Shown piece after piece: positions 19,086-57,877 of a DNA stretch of 64,000 bases (the first letter of the stretch is position 1; each line of letters opens with the position of its first letter). This DNA comes from an uncultured Thermoplasmatales archaeon (lineage in GTDB: Archaea; Thermoplasmatota; E2; UBA202; DSCA01), in contig CAZSHJ010000002.1 in NCBI GenBank assembly GCA_964606745.1, forward strand, positions 2,629-66,628, given 5' to 3'. The translations under genes and the position numbers were made by a program. The notes beneath the pieces were generated by a model. That model saw nothing but the letters and a program-made list of their open reading frames with translations, had not been told where the DNA came from and searched no databases.

Positions 19086-19121
19086 TCTCTATTTTGGCAA
19101 TATTATTTTTATATTATGAAA

Positions 19122-19337
19122 TCAATTGATTTCTTTCAATTTTTCTTTTGACTTGATACCAATAGTAATAATTTCAAGAACTACGATAAAAAGGACCACA
19201 ATGAAAGCTTCATTATAAAGCTCAGTATGTTTTTGGCAATTAAGTAAAAACCCTAGTCCGATGCCCTCGCCTAGCAATCTCATAAAGTATATCCAGTACT
19301 CGCGTAGGAATGCATACTTTAAATCTTCTCCAGGCAT
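19122..19337 (-). CDS. Small hydrophobic protein (hypothetical)
   Basis: 71-aa ORF with one TM segment in a <30% GC islet. Weak support. Confidence 0.3.
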   Translation of the reverse strand: MPGEDLKYAFLREYWIYFMRLLGEGIGLGFLLNCQKHTELYNEAFIVVLFIVVLEIITIGIKSKEKLKEIN

Positions 19338-19366
19338 TTTATCATATTATCAAATACGACTTTGGT

Positions 19367-19606
19367 TTAAATATTACTCAACTTGTGCTTTAGCATTAGA
19401 TATGCTATAAATGTAGTAAGGAGTGCAATAATAGGACCTGCCATTATTATAAACAATCCAGTATCTTTTTCAGTGTTCATTTCATATCCAATACCGATAG
19501 CAATTACCATAACAACTATCAATGTTGATAAGGTTTCAAAAACAACTAAACTCTTTAAATTAATACCACTCATGTCCTTCCTCCATACATATGAATATAT
19601 TAACAC
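19367..19606 (-). CDS. Small two-TM protein, paralogue of 19661..20032
   Basis: TM1-YEMNTEKDTGLFII-TM2 mirrors LEMTENKEIGLLLII in the neighbouring ORF. Likely start at internal Met (MSGINLK). Confidence 0.45.
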   Translation of the reverse strand: MLIYSYVWRKDMSGINLKSLVVFETLSTLIVVMVIAIGIGYEMNTEKDTGLFIIMAGPIIALLTTFIAYLMLKHKLSNI

Positions 19607-19660
19607 TATTTAAGTTTGTGCATCTGCTTTATGCTGCAATCATTTTTAGTAAACAAAGCA

Positions 19661-20032
19661 TTATTTAGGGGAATACTTATGAATCAACAATGTGCTAAGG
19701 ATATCCTCCATTAAAAGAATAAAAACTCCTGTTATAATAAGCAATAAGCCTATCTCTTTATTTTCAGTCATTTCTAAAAAAATACCTGCTGTTACAAGTG
19801 CAATCCCTATGGTGATACTTATAACATCTATAACATTTAATTTTCTTAGGTATTTCACGAGATTAGGCATATTATCCCCTCTCTTTCGTTCTATAATATC
19901 CCTTCTATTATTTAATATACCACGTTTTTTTTCATTGTGGCTTGCCGAGTGTGTATCAACTTTTCGAAGGTTGTTGATTGTCCTCATTTTTATCCCACTG
20001 CATAATGCTATCAAATTGATAGCATTATGCAC
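19661..20032 (-). CDS. Small two-TM protein (hypothetical), paralogue of 19367..19606
   Basis: C-terminal 70 aa form a two-TM hairpin homologous to the neighbour. N-terminal extension is basic. Start uncertain. Confidence 0.4.
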   Translation of the reverse strand: MHNAINLIALCSGIKMRTINNLRKVDTHSASHNEKKRGILNNRRDIIERKRGDNMPNLVKYLRKLNVIDVISITIGIALVTAGIFLEMTENKEIGLLLIITGVFILLMEDILSTLLIHKYSPK

Positions 20033-20173
20033 ATTATATAGTATATCGAAACTCTAGTATTTAAGTGTTTCCCCAAGATGTGTTATAGATAACCTTGCCA
20101 CTCTATATCAATAATAGCCTCAGGTATTAAATAGTTTTCTTTTATCCATACTCAACAAGTATTCACCATCCAT

Positions 20174-34441: not shown

Positions 34442-35968
34442 TTGCCGTTACATTACATTTCTGATATTATGATAGAGAAGAAGATGCTATCCATACTCGT
34501 TCTTTTTGTATTGGTAGTGCCTGTTGGAATTACGACCAATTTTTTCAATGCCGGTGAGGGAAAAGAATCCAGTACTGTCTATGGCGAATTTCATCAAGCG
34601 GGTAGTGCATTCGTTCCACCTGACAACATCACCGTGGTGGTGGACGTTATGCGTCTTCGTGCCATGACGCTTTGTGACGACAACCCCGGATTTTATTTCA
34701 AGATATTCATAAACGGCGAGAATTCCATGTGGATGGACCAAGTTGTCAATGGCAAGGACATATGGTTTGAGTGGCCCACTGCTGCCGCGACAATCCCGTA
34801 CGATGTCAATAAAACCGTTATCATACAGATAGAGGTATTGGAAGAACGCAGGGGGCAGGATGCTCAGTGCGATATAAGCAAGGAGAAGGGTCCGTATGAG
34901 GGCGGGAAAACCGTTACCCTTTTCTATGATATGAAAAGAGGAGAGTGGACAGGTGACGATTATCTCAAGGATGGAAACGGATACGGCCATTGCTCCGGTT
35001 TTGAGGACGGGAGCGAGGACGAGAATGACTGCGAGATATGGTTCGATGTTTATCAATGGGGTGAAGATGGGTGGTGGGGCGATGAAGACCGTTTGACTTA
35101 CTGGGAAAAAGTCCATGTTTACAAACTAAACGGCTCGGAGAATTATGGTAGAGAGGATTTCAACGGCGACGGCATACCAATGTATTGGGAGGACAAATAC
35201 GGATTTGACCCGTTTGCCGAAAGCAATGTCTCGCAGCAGGATCCTGACAAGGACGGGTTGACAAATTTCGAAGAGTGTAAAACATCTCAGTGGCTTTCAG
35301 ACCCGTTTGCCCAAGATGTATTCGTGGAAGTGGATGGCATGCAGGCCAAACATTCATGGCAGGATCCATATATGTTGCCCAAGGAGTCTCAAAATCTGAT
35401 ATGCAATCCGTTTGCCAGGCATAACATCACGCTTCACATAGACGACGGCATCATGTGCGGCGGCGGGGATTTGATTCCGTATGACGACGGTATGAGCAGC
35501 AAGGATTTGATGGCTGCCCGGTACAAGTATTTCCTCAATGAAGATGAGAATAACTGGAAAAGGGGAGTTTTCCATTGTGCCATCGTATGTAACCAGATGG
35601 AGTGGTACGGCCGACCGGCGGGCGGGAGAATGTTCTACACAGACAGCCATTGTGTTGGCGGGCAGTATGTTCGGAACTGGGCATGGGCATTCTATCTGCA
35701 GGGAAGCAGCTATTACAAGGCATTTGCAAGCGTGTTCATGCATGAACTTGGTCACACTCTTGGCTTGCTCGGTTTTGAAGGTATAGACAATGAAAATAGC
35801 AGATTTCTATGGTATAAAGAGTACTGGGATTGGGGCACGTACAGAAGCTGTATGAACTACCGCTATGTGTACAAACTGGTAGATTATTCAAGCGGTGATG
35901 ATGATGACTATGATCAGGATGACTGGGCCGCGCTTGACTTGACCCGCTTCACTGGAGAGGGTTGGTGA
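34442..35968 (+). CDS. Secreted zinc metalloprotease (HExxH, metzincin-like) with Ca-binding aspartate-rich repeats
   Basis: Signal peptide (MLSILVLFVLVVPVG; true start probably 34484). DPDKDGLTNFEE TSP3-like motif. C-terminal FMHELGHTLGL zinc-binding motif. Confidence 0.75.
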   Translation: MPLHYISDIMIEKKMLSILVLFVLVVPVGITTNFFNAGEGKESSTVYGEFHQAGSAFVPPDNITVVVDVMRLRAMTLCDDNPGFYFKIFINGENSMWMDQVVNGKDIWFEWPTAAATIPYDVNKTVIIQIEVLEERRGQDAQCDISKEKGPYEGGKTVTLFYDMKRGEWTGDDYLKDGNGYGHCSGFEDGSEDENDCEIWFDVYQWGEDGWWGDEDRLTYWEKVHVYKLNGSENYGREDFNGDGIPMYWEDKYGFDPFAESNVSQQDPDKDGLTNFEECKTSQWLSDPFAQDVFVEVDGMQAKHSWQDPYMLPKESQNLICNPFARHNITLHIDDGIMCGGGDLIPYDDGMSSKDLMAARYKYFLNEDENNWKRGVFHCAIVCNQMEWYGRPAGGRMFYTDSHCVGGQYVRNWAWAFYLQGSSYYKAFASVFMHELGHTLGLLGFEGIDNENSRFLWYKEYWDWGTYRSCMNYRYVYKLVDYSSGDDDDYDQDDWAALDLTRFTGEGW

Positions 35969-36918
35969 GCAGTTTCATGAAGGTGCAAATATTTTCTTTT
36001 GTTCTCCTTCTTTTTTTTCTCAGCTCATTCTCTGGCTGCCTGAGTGATAGTGATAGAGATAATGACGGGCTGTACGACAGTGTAGAGGAGAAGGGATGGG
36101 ATATTGGTGTAACCTATGTAGGTGAAGATTTAAGCAAGGCAGTTCATGTCACGTCCAGTACCCATAAAAAAGATACAGATGGCGATGGGTTGACCGATTA
36201 TCAGGAGTGGTCATCCTCTGTCGGCGGATGCGTAACAAATCCCAGAGAAAAAGACTCAGATGGCGATGGGTTGACCGATTACGAGGAGATAATAGTATAT
36301 GGAACAGACCCTCTGCACTGGGCGGATGATATAGACAAGGACAATGTATGGTGGAACGGCGATTATGAGGAGATAGAGTATTACCGGGGCAGGGGAATCG
36401 ATGATGCCACTATAAGGCAATTTTTAAACAATTCGGATGTTGACGGAGACGGTATCAAAGACGGGAATGACATCGATCCTCTTAGCGACCTTGAAGTCAG
36501 GATAACAATAGAAGGTGTAAAAGTAACCTCTGATATGGATGATAATGATGATCTGCTAGAAACAGTCTTTGACATTGTAACGGACGGGGAATCGAACTCC
36601 TCGACAATGATATATGTCCCTGTGGGGGTTAACTATTCTGTAAATATGAGTTTTAATGTCGATTTGAATGATATGGGCATTCCCGGGGAGTACAACAACA
36701 GCATATCCCTTGATGTCATAGATGAAGATAAGGGTCTGGAACGCAAGCCGCTGGACGTAGATGGTTTTCCCGGCATGGACGTGGTAAAAATTGTCCCTTC
36801 AGGCGGGTATGCAAGAAATGATTTCAACATCAACTCGGACTGCAGGCATTATCATTTGAGTGGTACGGACGGTGAGATTTGGTTCAGCATAGAAGATGTC
36901 AGCACCCCGTGGTCTTAA
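35962..36918 (+). CDS. Lipoprotein-like secreted protein with thrombospondin type-3-like Ca-binding repeats
   Basis: Lipobox-like FSGC. DTDGDGLTDYQE and DSDGDGLTDYEE repeats. Probable start at 35977 (MKVQIF). Confidence 0.7.
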   Translation: MVSSFMKVQIFSFVLLLFFLSSFSGCLSDSDRDNDGLYDSVEEKGWDIGVTYVGEDLSKAVHVTSSTHKKDTDGDGLTDYQEWSSSVGGCVTNPREKDSDGDGLTDYEEIIVYGTDPLHWADDIDKDNVWWNGDYEEIEYYRGRGIDDATIRQFLNNSDVDGDGIKDGNDIDPLSDLEVRITIEGVKVTSDMDDNDDLLETVFDIVTDGESNSSTMIYVPVGVNYSVNMSFNVDLNDMGIPGEYNNSISLDVIDEDKGLERKPLDVDGFPGMDVVKIVPSGGYARNDFNINSDCRHYHLSGTDGEIWFSIEDVSTPWS

Positions 36919-36992
36919 ATTGTCTTAAACTATTTAATCTTCGGTGACCTGCTTTAGAACAAAATTCATCTTATAAAATCCAAGCGAGAAAA

Positions 36993-37092
36993 CCCAGACC
37001 TTTAGGTCTGGGATGAATCGCCTGGAAAATTATAAAACGCCGATAGGCGTTTTCTTCCCCTTGAGGGGAAAGCCACGCAATTTATTGCGTGG
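36993..37092. other. Four consecutive perfect tetraloop stem-loops between convergent genes (candidate bidirectional terminator array or small structured RNA)
   Basis: cccagacc-ttta-ggtctggg (36993-37012); aaaacgcc-gata-ggcgtttt (37034-37053); ttcccc-ttga-ggggaa (37055-37070); ccacgcaa-ttta-ttgcgtgg (37073-37092). All read directly. Confidence 0.6.
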
Positions 37093-37173
37093 AAGGGGTG
37101 ACCCGGTCAAGAATTTTTTATCCGGTTTCCATGAGGTTCTAAGTGGCATTATTCATTTTCTATCTTTTTTTTA

Positions 37174-38364
37174 TTAACTCATCAACTCCTTCAGTTTTCC
37201 TTCCTCGATTGCCGTCTTTATCTCCATGGATATCCTCCTTCCGGTGGAAACTCGCCTTCTCCATAACGTATTGCCGTATGGGTGCCCCACGGACATGTGG
37301 ACATTCGTTCCGCCGCCTATGCGTGGCGCCACGTCATAAATGTAAAAGTGCAGGTCTTTATCGAGACACGTCTGGAGGCAGAATGGTCCAATTACACCGT
37401 AGTCATAGTGTTTCTGCGTTGCCTTCACGTATCTCTCCCCGAGTTCAAATACCTTTTCAAGCTGTGATTCCCTGAGCGTTGCGGAGTTGTGGCCGCACAC
37501 CGTGTATTCAGGAATCTGTTGTTTCTCGGGCAGGCTCAACTGTTGCTGGGCAGGAAGGCGGACATGCCCGTCCAAGCTGCTCTCGAATCTCCAGTCAATT
37601 CCAAGTAGTTCGAGTTCTTTGCTTATGGGGGAGTAGAAGAAATCGAAATTGAATACTGGCCCTATGATATATCTCTCTATCCTGCCTCTTTCCAGATCTT
37701 CCTCGGTTATCACCCCCTGCTGGAGCAGTTGTCCAGATTTTTCCATGTATTCGCTGTATGACGAGCAGGTGAAGAAGCCCCGCTCCAGTTTTTTTACCGC
37801 ATGATGGAGCTTGACTATGCACAACTCATCTATATTTCTTGGGTCATCTATCTTTTCCGGGAAGGGCATTCCCTCTCTCTCCAAGAGCCAGTAGTAATCT
37901 CTCTCCTCCGTCCTCTCCTCGGTGCGCAGTAAATTCCTGGAGCCGAACATGGGCACACGAAAATTTTCCTCTATCTCATCAAGTTTGCAATACGATGTGA
38001 ATGACCGGTTTGGAATAAAAATCACATTTTCCTCAATCAGCCTTTCCTGATTTTTCTCAAGCAAAATCTCGTTGAATTTTTCAAACACCCATGTTTCATC
38101 GACGCATCCCCTCCATACCGTCCCGTCCTTCCTGTGGGCTTTGAAATATTGCGAATATGTTTTCTCCCTGCCTTTCTGGCATACAGCAAGTGTTTTAAAT
38201 CCCTCGTCAACAGCCCCGTCAAAGGTGTCGAGAGCGGAGTGGGACGCCACAGCCCCTATTTTTATGTTGTCAGTGTCATATTCATCAAGCGTCTCCAATA
38301 TCTTGCTTCTATCAATCATTTTATCGCCAATAGTGAATGCCAGACGGGTTTTTAAATTATGCAA
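37174..38364 (-). CDS. purP: 5-formaminoimidazole-4-carboxamide ribonucleotide synthetase
   Basis: 396 aa ATP-grasp protein; matches the archaeal PurP family (also overlaps the next gene by 8 nt). Confidence 0.88.
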   Translation of the reverse strand: MHNLKTRLAFTIGDKMIDRSKILETLDEYDTDNIKIGAVASHSALDTFDGAVDEGFKTLAVCQKGREKTYSQYFKAHRKDGTVWRGCVDETWVFEKFNEILLEKNQERLIEENVIFIPNRSFTSYCKLDEIEENFRVPMFGSRNLLRTEERTEERDYYWLLEREGMPFPEKIDDPRNIDELCIVKLHHAVKKLERGFFTCSSYSEYMEKSGQLLQQGVITEEDLERGRIERYIIGPVFNFDFFYSPISKELELLGIDWRFESSLDGHVRLPAQQQLSLPEKQQIPEYTVCGHNSATLRESQLEKVFELGERYVKATQKHYDYGVIGPFCLQTCLDKDLHFYIYDVAPRIGGGTNVHMSVGHPYGNTLWRRRVSTGRRISMEIKTAIEEGKLKELMS

Positions 38365-57106: not shown

Positions 57107-57289
57107 AAATCGACTGGATTAGAGCTCCGGTGCACTCTAGTCTTCGACACAAATAATTTCTTATCCATTTAGGCCGGGAATACTGCATGATATGTATCGA
57201 AGCGTAAGACCTGCAGATGAGAGACCGTTTCTTTTAACTTGTTAACCATTGTATATCAGTTGTGCGCGGTAGACCATAGGGTCTGCCCC

Positions 57290-57700
57290 TCAATGGCACG
57301 ACAGGAGAAAAGAACAATATGAATGTTATAAATGGCGGTAGCTATAAAAAGAATTTAGGTGACACTCGACATAGCCAGGTAAACACGATGTTTGTGACTT
57401 AATGTCGATTCAACTGTTTCTGGAGTAAGGATGCTTTTAGGGAGCTGAAACATTTTGGTTTTGCTGGAAATCATGTTCACTCCCATGTGAGCATTCCAAA
57501 AAGATATTCAGTTCAAGATGCAGAGATCGTGTTGAAATCCCGTAGTGCTAAAAGAATATTCAAGAAGCCTCCTGGCTTTGGGAAACGGTATCCACGTGGG
57601 GGCTTTTGGAGCGGATAAGAGCATCATAAGTCAACAGGAAAAATAAACTTGGGGCCAGCATGTATCTGCAATAGCAACGGTTATCTTGATTTACCGCCGA
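57290..57700 (+). mobile_element. IS200/IS605-family TnpA (Y1 HUH transposase) remnant, degraded
   Basis: Frame 57403-57618 reads ...FAGNHVHSHVSIPKRYSVQDAEIVLKSRSAKRIFKKPPGFGKRYPRGGFWSG-stop (HUH motif HVH; family pattern HVHLLVSIPPKYSVS..LKGKSS..L...P.LKK.YWG..FWS.GYF). N-terminal third is not recoverable and the C-terminus is frameshifted. Stem-loop agacc-atag-ggtct at ~57271-57284 sits where an IS left-end hairpin would be. Confidence 0.5.
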
Positions 57701-57877
57701 GTGAGATGCGGTATGGCCGAGCCCATTGTGGGCGAGGGCTTGCCTTATAAGGGAGCAGCCCCTATTTCGCAGTAAGCCATGGTTTATAATGTATTAATAG
57801 ACTCCCCATACTTTCTTTGTTCTTTGGCATGTGCATTAGAAAAGCATTTTAATCGATACCGATTGCATGAGGGATAA

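Follow-up and report, generated by a model that had tools for sequence, protein, structure and literature searches.

What are four perfect hairpins doing side by side between two convergent archaeal genes? They lie at positions 36993-37092 of a 64,000-nt stretch (here called the window) of an uncultured Thermoplasmatales archaeon (assembly GCA_964606745.1, contig CAZSHJ010000002.1, positions 2,629 to 66,628 of the forward strand). A reading made from the sequence alone had described three stems of 8 bp and one of 6 bp, each with a 4-nt loop, in a 255-nt convergent gap, and had proposed a bidirectional terminator array, a small structured non-coding RNA (ncRNA) or a miniature repeat element. 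The hairpins can be read directly in the sequence as described, and the gap does measure 255 nt between the stop codons (36919-37173). Our analysis indicates that the array is very probably a palindrome-associated transposable element (PATE) of 128 nt, non-autonomous and derived by deletion from an IS200-type insertion sequence (IS) of the IS200/IS605 family. The hairpins, with stems of 8, 8, 6 and 8 bp in their order along the sequence, are:

36993-37012, + strand: hairpin hp1, CCCAGACC-TTTA-GGTCTGGG, stem of 8 bp
37034-37053, + strand: hairpin hp2, AAAACGCC-GATA-GGCGTTTT, which reads A4-CGCC-GATA-GGCG-T4
37055-37070, + strand: hairpin hp3, TTCCCC-TTGA-GGGGAA, internal, stem of 6 bp
37073-37092, + strand: hairpin hp4, CCACGCAA-TTTA-TTGCGTGG, stem of 8 bp

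The clustering is far beyond chance. The whole 64 kb hold 22 perfect hairpins with a stem of at least 7 bp, three of which fall within the array. In 300 first-order Markov simulations four hairpins (stem of at least 6 bp, loop of 4 nt) never clustered in 100 nt, and the largest cluster, of three, was seen twice. The spacer also folds as RNA better than its shuffled versions (z = -5.2 for the + strand, -5.7 for the - strand), and the element folded as single-stranded DNA reaches z = -8.4. The search of the whole window against Rfam gave no match at the gathering threshold; at the locus, with E <= 10, there were only matches at chance level (E 0.3-10), and no tRNA or transfer-messenger RNA (tmRNA) genes were found. 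A known RNA family was rejected on these results.

Dispersal, borders and empty sites

A genome-wide search for the same hairpins had been suggested to see whether they form a repeat family, and on a metagenome collection the answer was positive. The collection was scanned once with a degenerate pattern of hp2 and hp3, RRRRCGCCNNNNGGCGYYYYNYYYCCCNNNNGGGRRR, which fixes CGCC and GGCG, and 77 loci were recovered (here and below, single loci and contigs from all searches are numbered with the prefix L). About 57 of these 77 carry a common unit of 128 nt according to blastn and a covariance model (R1), and can be regarded as true copies. In the window the unit corresponds to:

36975-37102, + strand (taken as the top strand): the candidate PATE, 128 nt, delimited by blastn and by alignments of more than 40 copies

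Copies with 96-99 % identity were found at 17 distinct intergenic sites, the one in the window included, on contigs of Ga0315543_* (the window's own sample), of the sister samples Ga0315549_* and Ga0307438_*, and of Ga0190359. Further subfamilies with 76-93 % identity are present in other metagenomes. Each of the 17 high-identity copies lies between genes, often directly 3′ of a gene end, in mixed contexts which include divergent promoters. The window copy scores 163 bits with model R1, and the same model found no second copy within the window. No similar sequence was found in 80 loci of purP, the gene facing the array, and a mixed degenerate pattern had no match in viral contigs.

The right border of the unit is sharp, as the similarity between copies stops exactly after GAC, the last letters being ...GGGGTGAC or ...GCGTGGAAGGGGTGAC. 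The left border lies just 3′ of a conserved TTAT. Terminal inverted repeats (TIRs) are absent: the left end RAAATCCAAGCGAG and the reverse-complemented right end GTCACCCCTTCC share nothing, and an inverted-repeat search of the element returned the internal hairpins only. We also found no target-site duplication (TSD), as the window flanks read ...CTTAT on the left and CCGGTC on the right and no repeated flank is seen among the 17 high-identity copies. A classical miniature inverted-repeat transposable element (MITE) of the DDE kind, with TIRs and a TSD, was rejected since TIRs are lacking in the spacer and in the element alike. The sole open reading frame (ORF) that runs through the element (37013-37177, 54 aa) has its frame broken in other copies by indels of 1-6 nt between hp1 and hp2. 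With its 128 nt the element is too short for a transposase, and it has no conserved intact ORF.

Several observations on individual copies are worth recording. In locus L159 (6563-9171) three copies lie exactly 1230 nt apart inside a tandem repeat which duplicates a CDP-alcohol phosphatidyltransferase gene; this could reflect true amplification in tandem or an artefact of assembly. The contig end of L102 (1-150) consists of a head-to-tail array of the 27-nt unit CGACAAGCATCATTCACGACCCGTATT, its units unspaced. Partial copies of the 3′ half (L157, L134, L105, L124, L145, L153 and L108) were considered as right ends of elements with tnpA or tnpB and rejected, since no transposase was found upstream; they look like truncated or chimeric copies.

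The locus itself and its relatives provide the empty sites. The relevant features around the element are:

35962-36918, + strand: gene for a TSP3-repeat protein, upstream flank (Pfam PF18884, 7e-13)
37174-38319, - strand: purP, DUF1246/DUF1297 family, convergent flank (Pfam PF06849 and PF06973)
36919-36970, no strand: left part of an older spacer, outside the element, with homologous sequence in L161 and L164
37103-37173, no strand: right part of the older spacer, outside the element, where CCGGTCAAGAATTTTTTATCCGGTTTC... matches L164 (...TCAAGAATTTTTAATCCGGTTTC...)

The window corresponds to the Joint Genome Institute (JGI) metagenome contig Ga0315543_1000224, and the element-bearing spacer is identical in two independent samples, the second being another JGI sample. 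The exact PurP protein is present on JGI and Logan contigs; the Logan contig ends inside the spacer and matches over the 100 nt that it holds. Among 185,579 species genomes the closest purP loci all belong to metagenome-assembled genomes (MAGs) of uncultured Thermoplasmatota/Thermoplasmatales, in agreement with the archaeal host that the sequence-only reading had presumed.

In nine species whose PurP is 76-92 % identical, the two genes overlap at TTAA with zero spacer (..GAGTTAAGACC..), and the stop codons overlap without a spacer in L162 and L163 as well. Closer relatives, L161 and L164, were reached via the faster-evolving TSP3 protein, and there the homologous outer spacer is present and the 128-nt block absent. 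Once the element is removed, the window aligns with L164 without gaps across the site, with 22 of 33 positions identical by hand count, and the empty site shows no extra bases, within a border uncertainty of a few bases. In L161 the left outer spacer is kept up to ...GAATTCC and is followed by different sequence. These comparisons show that the spacer is lineage-specific and that the hairpin block is an insertion within this older spacer. The same comparison removed another candidate, a TTAA-duplicating MITE that would comprise the whole 255-nt gap: only the central 128 nt are repeated elsewhere and the outer parts occur in L161 and L164 without the core, so the bracketing TTAA...TTAA (36915-18 and 37174-77) belongs to the older spacer common to these two loci.

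The older spacer has some peculiarities of its own. Between the TSP3 gene and purP of L164 there is a small ORF for a hydrophobic product of 58 aa (1926-2102, - strand, approximately window 37140-37160), which is deleted in the window, where the flanks alone are left; purP of L164 is seemingly split into two ORFs. Directly 3′ of the TSP3 stop codon the window carries a 10-nt tandem duplication (36919-36928, ATTGTCTTAA) that repeats GTCTTAA of the gene end and is missing in L161. At the site equivalent to that of the element, L161 (~945-990) has a different hairpin, CCACCCGGTC...TAGCGAACGAAG...GACCGGTGG, the loop of which resembles the left-end hairpin of a second IS200-type element described below, and the site may therefore be an insertion hot spot. 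Finally, a 17-nt direct repeat GGTGACC.. (36943-36959 and 37097-37113, 76 %) flanks the hairpin block and might be the footprint of an older copy.

Fold, guides and autonomous relatives

A covariation analysis had also been suggested, and its outcome was positive. We tested a five-helix model, consisting of a basal stem and hp1-hp4, on 44 distinct copies. Paired cells amount to 96.4 % against 35-49 % in slid controls, and 13 pairs have changes on both sides, a number reached in 0 of 500 shuffles. The compensatory pairs fall in hp1 (five of eight), hp4 (four of eight) and the basal stem (three of eight). The stem of hp2 is invariant across the 44 copies, down to 76 % identity, while its loop varies, and hp3 is likewise invariant. 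The pairing and the changes on both sides indicate that the structure of the element is under selection. An assignment of the folding strand by mismatches was dropped, as the counts of G-T and A-C (26 vs 17) are too close to pick one. The left end (LE) forms a module around hp1:

36979-37026, + strand: LE module, basal stem TCCA.GCGA/TCGC.TGGA (36979-36987 with 37018-37026) around hp1, with conserved unpaired AGCGAGAAA and GGGATGAATCGC

Three further explanations of the conserved parts were tried and rejected. A kink-turn in the internal loop of the LE does not fit on sequence inspection, as the required G.A pairs cannot be placed. A 5′ leader whose Shine-Dalgarno sequence would be the GGAGG/GGGGTGA of the right end fails because most copies have no start codon or same-strand ORF after it. 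A coding N-terminal peptide that would begin at the conserved ATGAATCGC is contradicted by the frame-breaking indels.

The layout of the ends resembles that of IS608, in which the transposase TnpA binds subterminal hairpins of the top strand, cleaves 3′ of TTAC, located 19 nt 5′ of the left hairpin and outside the IS, and cleaves on the right at TCAA, 10 nt 3′ of the right hairpin (PMC3201880). The cleavage sites are read there by 4-nt guides 5′ of each hairpin foot; the left guide (G_L) is AAAG, and an altered G_L retargets insertion (PMC3201880). The candidate equivalents in the window are:

36971-36974, + strand: TTAT, putative target and left cleavage tetranucleotide (C_L), in flanking DNA, 18 nt 5′ of the hp1 foot
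36989-36992, + strand: AAAA, putative left guide G_L, the 4 nt 5′ of the hp1 foot
37069-37072, + strand: AAAG, putative right guide, whose first two bases are the last two of hp3
37093-37102, + strand: right tail AAGGGGTGAC, 10 nt, ending in the putative right cleavage site (C_R) TGAC, with the sharp border after GAC
hp1 and hp4, subterminal, + strand: putative TnpA binding sites, equivalent to the left and right imperfect palindromes (IPL and IPR), as suggested by the compensatory changes and by homologous hairpins in autonomous elements

The start of hp1 is 18 nt from the left border and the end of hp4 is 10 nt from the right border. Guide and flank co-vary among the 44 copies. The guide AAAA (26 copies) is preceded by TTAT in 25 cases and by TCAT in one, and the guide AAAT (18 copies) is preceded by TTAA in 17 cases and by CTAA in one, so the fourth bases of G_L and flank change together (A/T or T/A). 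The right end behaves similarly: a guide ending in G goes with an element ending in C, and one ending in A with an element ending in T, apart from two exceptions.

In L097, L117 and L111 copies of the repeat are adjoined by a second element. Its left end starts after ...TTAA and reads (C/T)..CATCTCAGCGAGAAAT-CCCCAACCTTTAGGTAGGGG-ATGAATCGC..., a sequence 87 % identical to the hp1 module of the repeat. The adjoining element of L097 runs into a gene for a Y1 (IS200-like) transposase and its right end (RE) is CCCCGCCA-TTCA-TGGCGGGG-AGTATATCAC, i.e. an 8-bp hairpin with a 4-nt loop and a 10-nt tail, a layout that matches hp4 and its tail. A protein search resulted in hundreds of relatives annotated as IS200/IS605 family transposases. 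L165, L166 and L167 carry a called Pfam Y1_Tnp domain (PF01797) in proteins of 146 aa (full length, L165 and L166) and 120 aa (L167). Their left end follows TTAA and reads CACA..AGCGAGAAAT-CCCCAACCTTTAGGTAGGGG-ATGAATCGC, and their right end is GAAG-CCCCGCCATTCATGGCGGGG-AGTATGTCAC.

The module AGCGAGAAAT-hairpin-ATGAATCGC is the left end of the autonomous IS200-type elements of L097, L117, L111, L165 and L167. The counterpart of hp1 in the autonomous elements is CCCCAACC-TTTA-GGTAGGGG, that of hp4 is CCCCGCCA-TTCA-TGGCGGGG, and the 10-nt right tail is AGTATRTCAC. Aligned in register with L165 and L167, the window element is 75-78 % identical over 60 nt of the LE and 68 % identical over ~50 nt of the RE. 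Moreover, hp3 corresponds in register to the end of tnpA in L165 and L167, CTCCCCTTCATGAG-AAG, which comprises the final codons and the stop; it thus probably derives from the 3′ end of an ancestral tnpA. Since both ends and hp3 align in register, the 128-nt unit can be interpreted as the LE and RE of such an IS from which the gene was deleted.

An autonomous IS lies downstream of element copies at 13 nt in L117 (10470-10521), which comes from the window's own sample, at ~117 nt in L097 (1443-1560) and at ~880 nt in L111 (11895-12772). This proximity in three contexts suggests a common target preference or local hopping.

Two more IS elements deserve a comment. In L168 (~250-300) an autonomous copy displays a precise deletion of the left-end hairpin, CCAGCGAG being joined directly to ATGAATCGC; the rest is identical to L167, right flank included. 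The window itself contains a degraded copy of a different IS200-type element (57169-57770, + strand; left end TTAGGCCGGGAATACTGC..., hairpin loop GTATCGAAGCGTAA, right end ...GCCCCTATTTCGC) with a Y1-transposase pseudogene that has in-frame stops and is 61 % identical to TnpA of L093. Intact relatives of it are found right beside the hairpin element in L102, at 4-5 nt past the GTGAC end, and in L093, at 63 nt upstream.

The longest perfect hairpin of the window is found at 19999-20031, an inverted repeat of 15 bp with a 3-nt loop, TGCATAATGCTATCA-AAT-TGATAGCATTATGCA. It sits in ~1.1 kb (19086-20173) with weak overlapping ORFs only and has no Rfam match.

Weighing of the readings

We interpret the array as a PATE because it belongs to a dispersed repeat with consistent borders, because the related spacers provide empty sites, because its ends are homologous to those of TnpA-encoding elements, and because hp1 and hp4 show compensatory changes and the guides co-vary with their targets. 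These features, together with the lack of TIRs and of a target duplication, are what the analysis shows. They agree with the description of PATEs as elements without TIRs or target duplication and too short for a transposase, with near-terminal palindromes of which the 5′ one is at a larger distance from the end than the 3′ one (PMC3119063). Of the three initial candidates it is the miniature repeat that is borne out, by the same unit at many unrelated loci, its absence from the spacers of relatives and the IS200/IS605 architecture of the ends.

By analogy with known elements, a Y1 (HUH) TnpA from an autonomous relative elsewhere in the genome would bind hp1 and hp4 on the single-stranded top strand. 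The guides AAAA (left) and AAAG (right) would pair with TTAT in the left flank and with TGAC at the right tip, the element would be excised as a single-stranded circle, and the circle would be pasted 3′ of another TTAT, leaving no target duplication ('peel and paste'). In this scheme hp3 would be a relic of the tnpA 3′ end and hp2, a GC stem between A4 and T4, may block read-through transcription, as the left-end hairpin of Salmonella IS200 reportedly does.

Several points weigh against this interpretation. The left border is precise to a few bases only, and the T-rich stretch upstream of TTAT is partly conserved too. The hp1 stem is unlike the hp4 stem, and both are unlike the stems of the autonomous relatives; all that they have in common is a length of 8 bp, a start with CC and a TTYA loop, so that any TnpA still mobilising the subfamily is a putative one. 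The autonomous copy closest in sequence, L097, has its tnpA disrupted in the N-terminal part. The invariance of hp2 and hp3 is partly an effect of ascertainment, as the search pattern fixed part of both, and the co-variation of guide and target perhaps reflects few independent events, possibly two clades. That the contigs of the other copies come from the same genome or population as the window is our assumption, and mobilisation by TnpA, now or in the past, is something we infer, as is any effect on transcription of the convergent genes.

The position between convergent genes would also fit a locally evolved bidirectional terminator, or an array of RNA-stabilising hairpins, serving the TSP3-repeat gene and purP. 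On the - strand T4 runs follow hp1 and hp2, both of which are flagged by a scan for bacterial-type terminators, hp2 has A4/T4 flanks in both directions, and many other copies lie just past gene 3′ ends. However, archaeal termination requires oligo-T only, and the sequence-only reading was right that a terminator would not need four hairpins; hp1 and hp4 are best explained as transposase-binding hairpins. The 128 nt recur at 96-99 % at no fewer than 16 unrelated loci, divergent-promoter contexts included, and relatives have either overlapping stops without a spacer or a spacer without hairpins. The ends are homologous to transposon ends. Termination could be at most a secondary, exapted effect of the insertion, and we consider a locally evolved array most unlikely.

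Nor do we favour a multi-copy gene for a small structured RNA, for instance a PATE-borne guide similar to omega-RNA that would serve a TnpB or IscB encoded elsewhere, with a scaffold that would stop at the right border and a variable flank that would act as the guide. The sharp 3′ border followed by unrelated sequence has this scaffold-plus-guide geometry, the compensatory changes and conserved unpaired motifs would suit an RNA, a TATA-like TTATAAAA is found at the left border, and PATEs often encode omega-RNAs on which proteins act in trans (Meers et al., PMC10055086). Yet Rfam has no match even at E <= 10 beyond chance level, the autonomous relatives belong to the IS200 type and carry tnpA alone, without tnpB, and no TnpB-like ORF was found beside any copy inspected or among the 10 tested ORFs of the window (349-541 aa). 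Guide and cleavage sites of TnpA account for the unpaired motifs, a transcript from the left-border TATA would start inside hp1 and destroy the co-varying LE stem, and the mismatch counts give no strand signal. This makes an RNA gene very unlikely. With dispersal, empty sites and transposon-like ends in view, neither the terminator array nor the ncRNA is supported as the primary nature of the hairpins, and such functions could only be secondary, exapted roles.

The element is a hairpin-rich extragenic repeat, as are repetitive extragenic palindromes (REPs) and their paired form, REPINs, and an element of this type would be kept by a domesticated, single-copy REP-associated tyrosine transposase (RAYT) and would not be a parasitic PATE. 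Y1-transposase genes adjoin copies in L093 and L102, and L093 and L095 hint at two tail-to-tail copies ~80 nt apart. Against this, each copy forms one 128-nt unit whose left end is distinct from its right end, and inverted doublets of short palindromes are not what is seen. The homologous transposase is part of a multi-copy IS that has defined borders and an LE and RE of its own. The Y1 gene of L093 and L102 is that of another IS200-type element, the one with a degraded copy in the window, whose hairpins are unrelated. We regard a REP-like element as extremely unlikely.

The element may also be more than selfish DNA. The inner hairpins are unneeded for IS608-like recognition of the ends, hp2 is constant and insertions usually lie just behind gene 3′ ends, and for these reasons the element could be a portable module that stops transcription in both directions or stabilises RNA, or a guide-like RNA crossing the right border for a nuclease elsewhere. 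We think this unlikely; hp2 does have the shape of a bidirectional terminator, a role it might perform.

Comparison with known systems

The PATE interpretation removes a false lead, as the array is neither a new type of archaeal terminator nor a new RNA family. It is selfish DNA of an already known kind. For uncultured Thermoplasmatota of sediments, whose mobile elements are, to our knowledge, hardly described, it adds the record of an IS200/IS605 PATE family that looks active. Annotators of such MAGs are advised to mask the repeat, since it breaks assemblies and can lengthen or shorten ORFs at gene ends.

With the bacterial REPs, bacterial interspersed mosaic elements (BIMEs) and RAYTs the element has in common that hairpin repeats are extragenic, linked to HUH Y1 transposases and often placed between convergent genes. 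REPs, however, are palindromes of 20-40 nt, often in inverted pairs, with one domesticated RAYT gene, while the window element has defined borders, a length of 128 nt and the asymmetric ends of a transposon. The PATE-like elements of the Geobacillus stearothermophilus ISGst families (Meers et al. 2023, PMC10055086) are similarly gene-less. Like the window element, they have LE and RE in common with autonomous members of the IS200/IS605 family, and TnpA is predicted to move both kinds in trans. In Geobacillus an omega-RNA for TnpB or IscB is often part of the element, whereas neither such an RNA nor such a nuclease is evident here.

The PATEs of Haloquadratum walsbyi, including the 'homogeneous' HqIRS46 and HqIRS56 (Dyall-Smith et al. 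2011, PMC3119063), are likewise archaeal, gene-less and free of TIRs and TSDs. They also have near-terminal palindromes related to IS605-type elements with the 5′ distance larger than the 3′ one, many near-identical copies, a 5′ targeting sequence of 4-5 nt and an origin by deletion of the transposon core. The phylum differs, our host belonging to the uncultured Thermoplasmatota and not to Halobacteria, and no sequence similarity is expected. Moreover, the parent is here IS200-type (tnpA only), while the haloarchaeal ones are mostly IS1341/tnpB-type, and the window element has two additional internal perfect hairpins.

Regarding IS608 of Helicobacter pylori, the differences are plain, as this bacterial element is autonomous, encodes tnpA and tnpB in ~1.8 kb and has two near-identical hairpins, whereas the window element has 128 nt, no gene, and hp1 and hp4 stems that differ. 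Both have subterminal hairpins on one strand, a C_L outside the element at 18 nt (here) or 19 nt (IS608) from the hairpin foot, and a right site at 10 nt. The pairing of target and guide follows the same scheme, T-A, T-A, A.A and N-N′, with TTAC/AAAG in IS608 and TTAT/AAAA and TTAA/AAAT in our family. This series offers comparative support for the guide-directed choice of target that is known experimentally in IS608.

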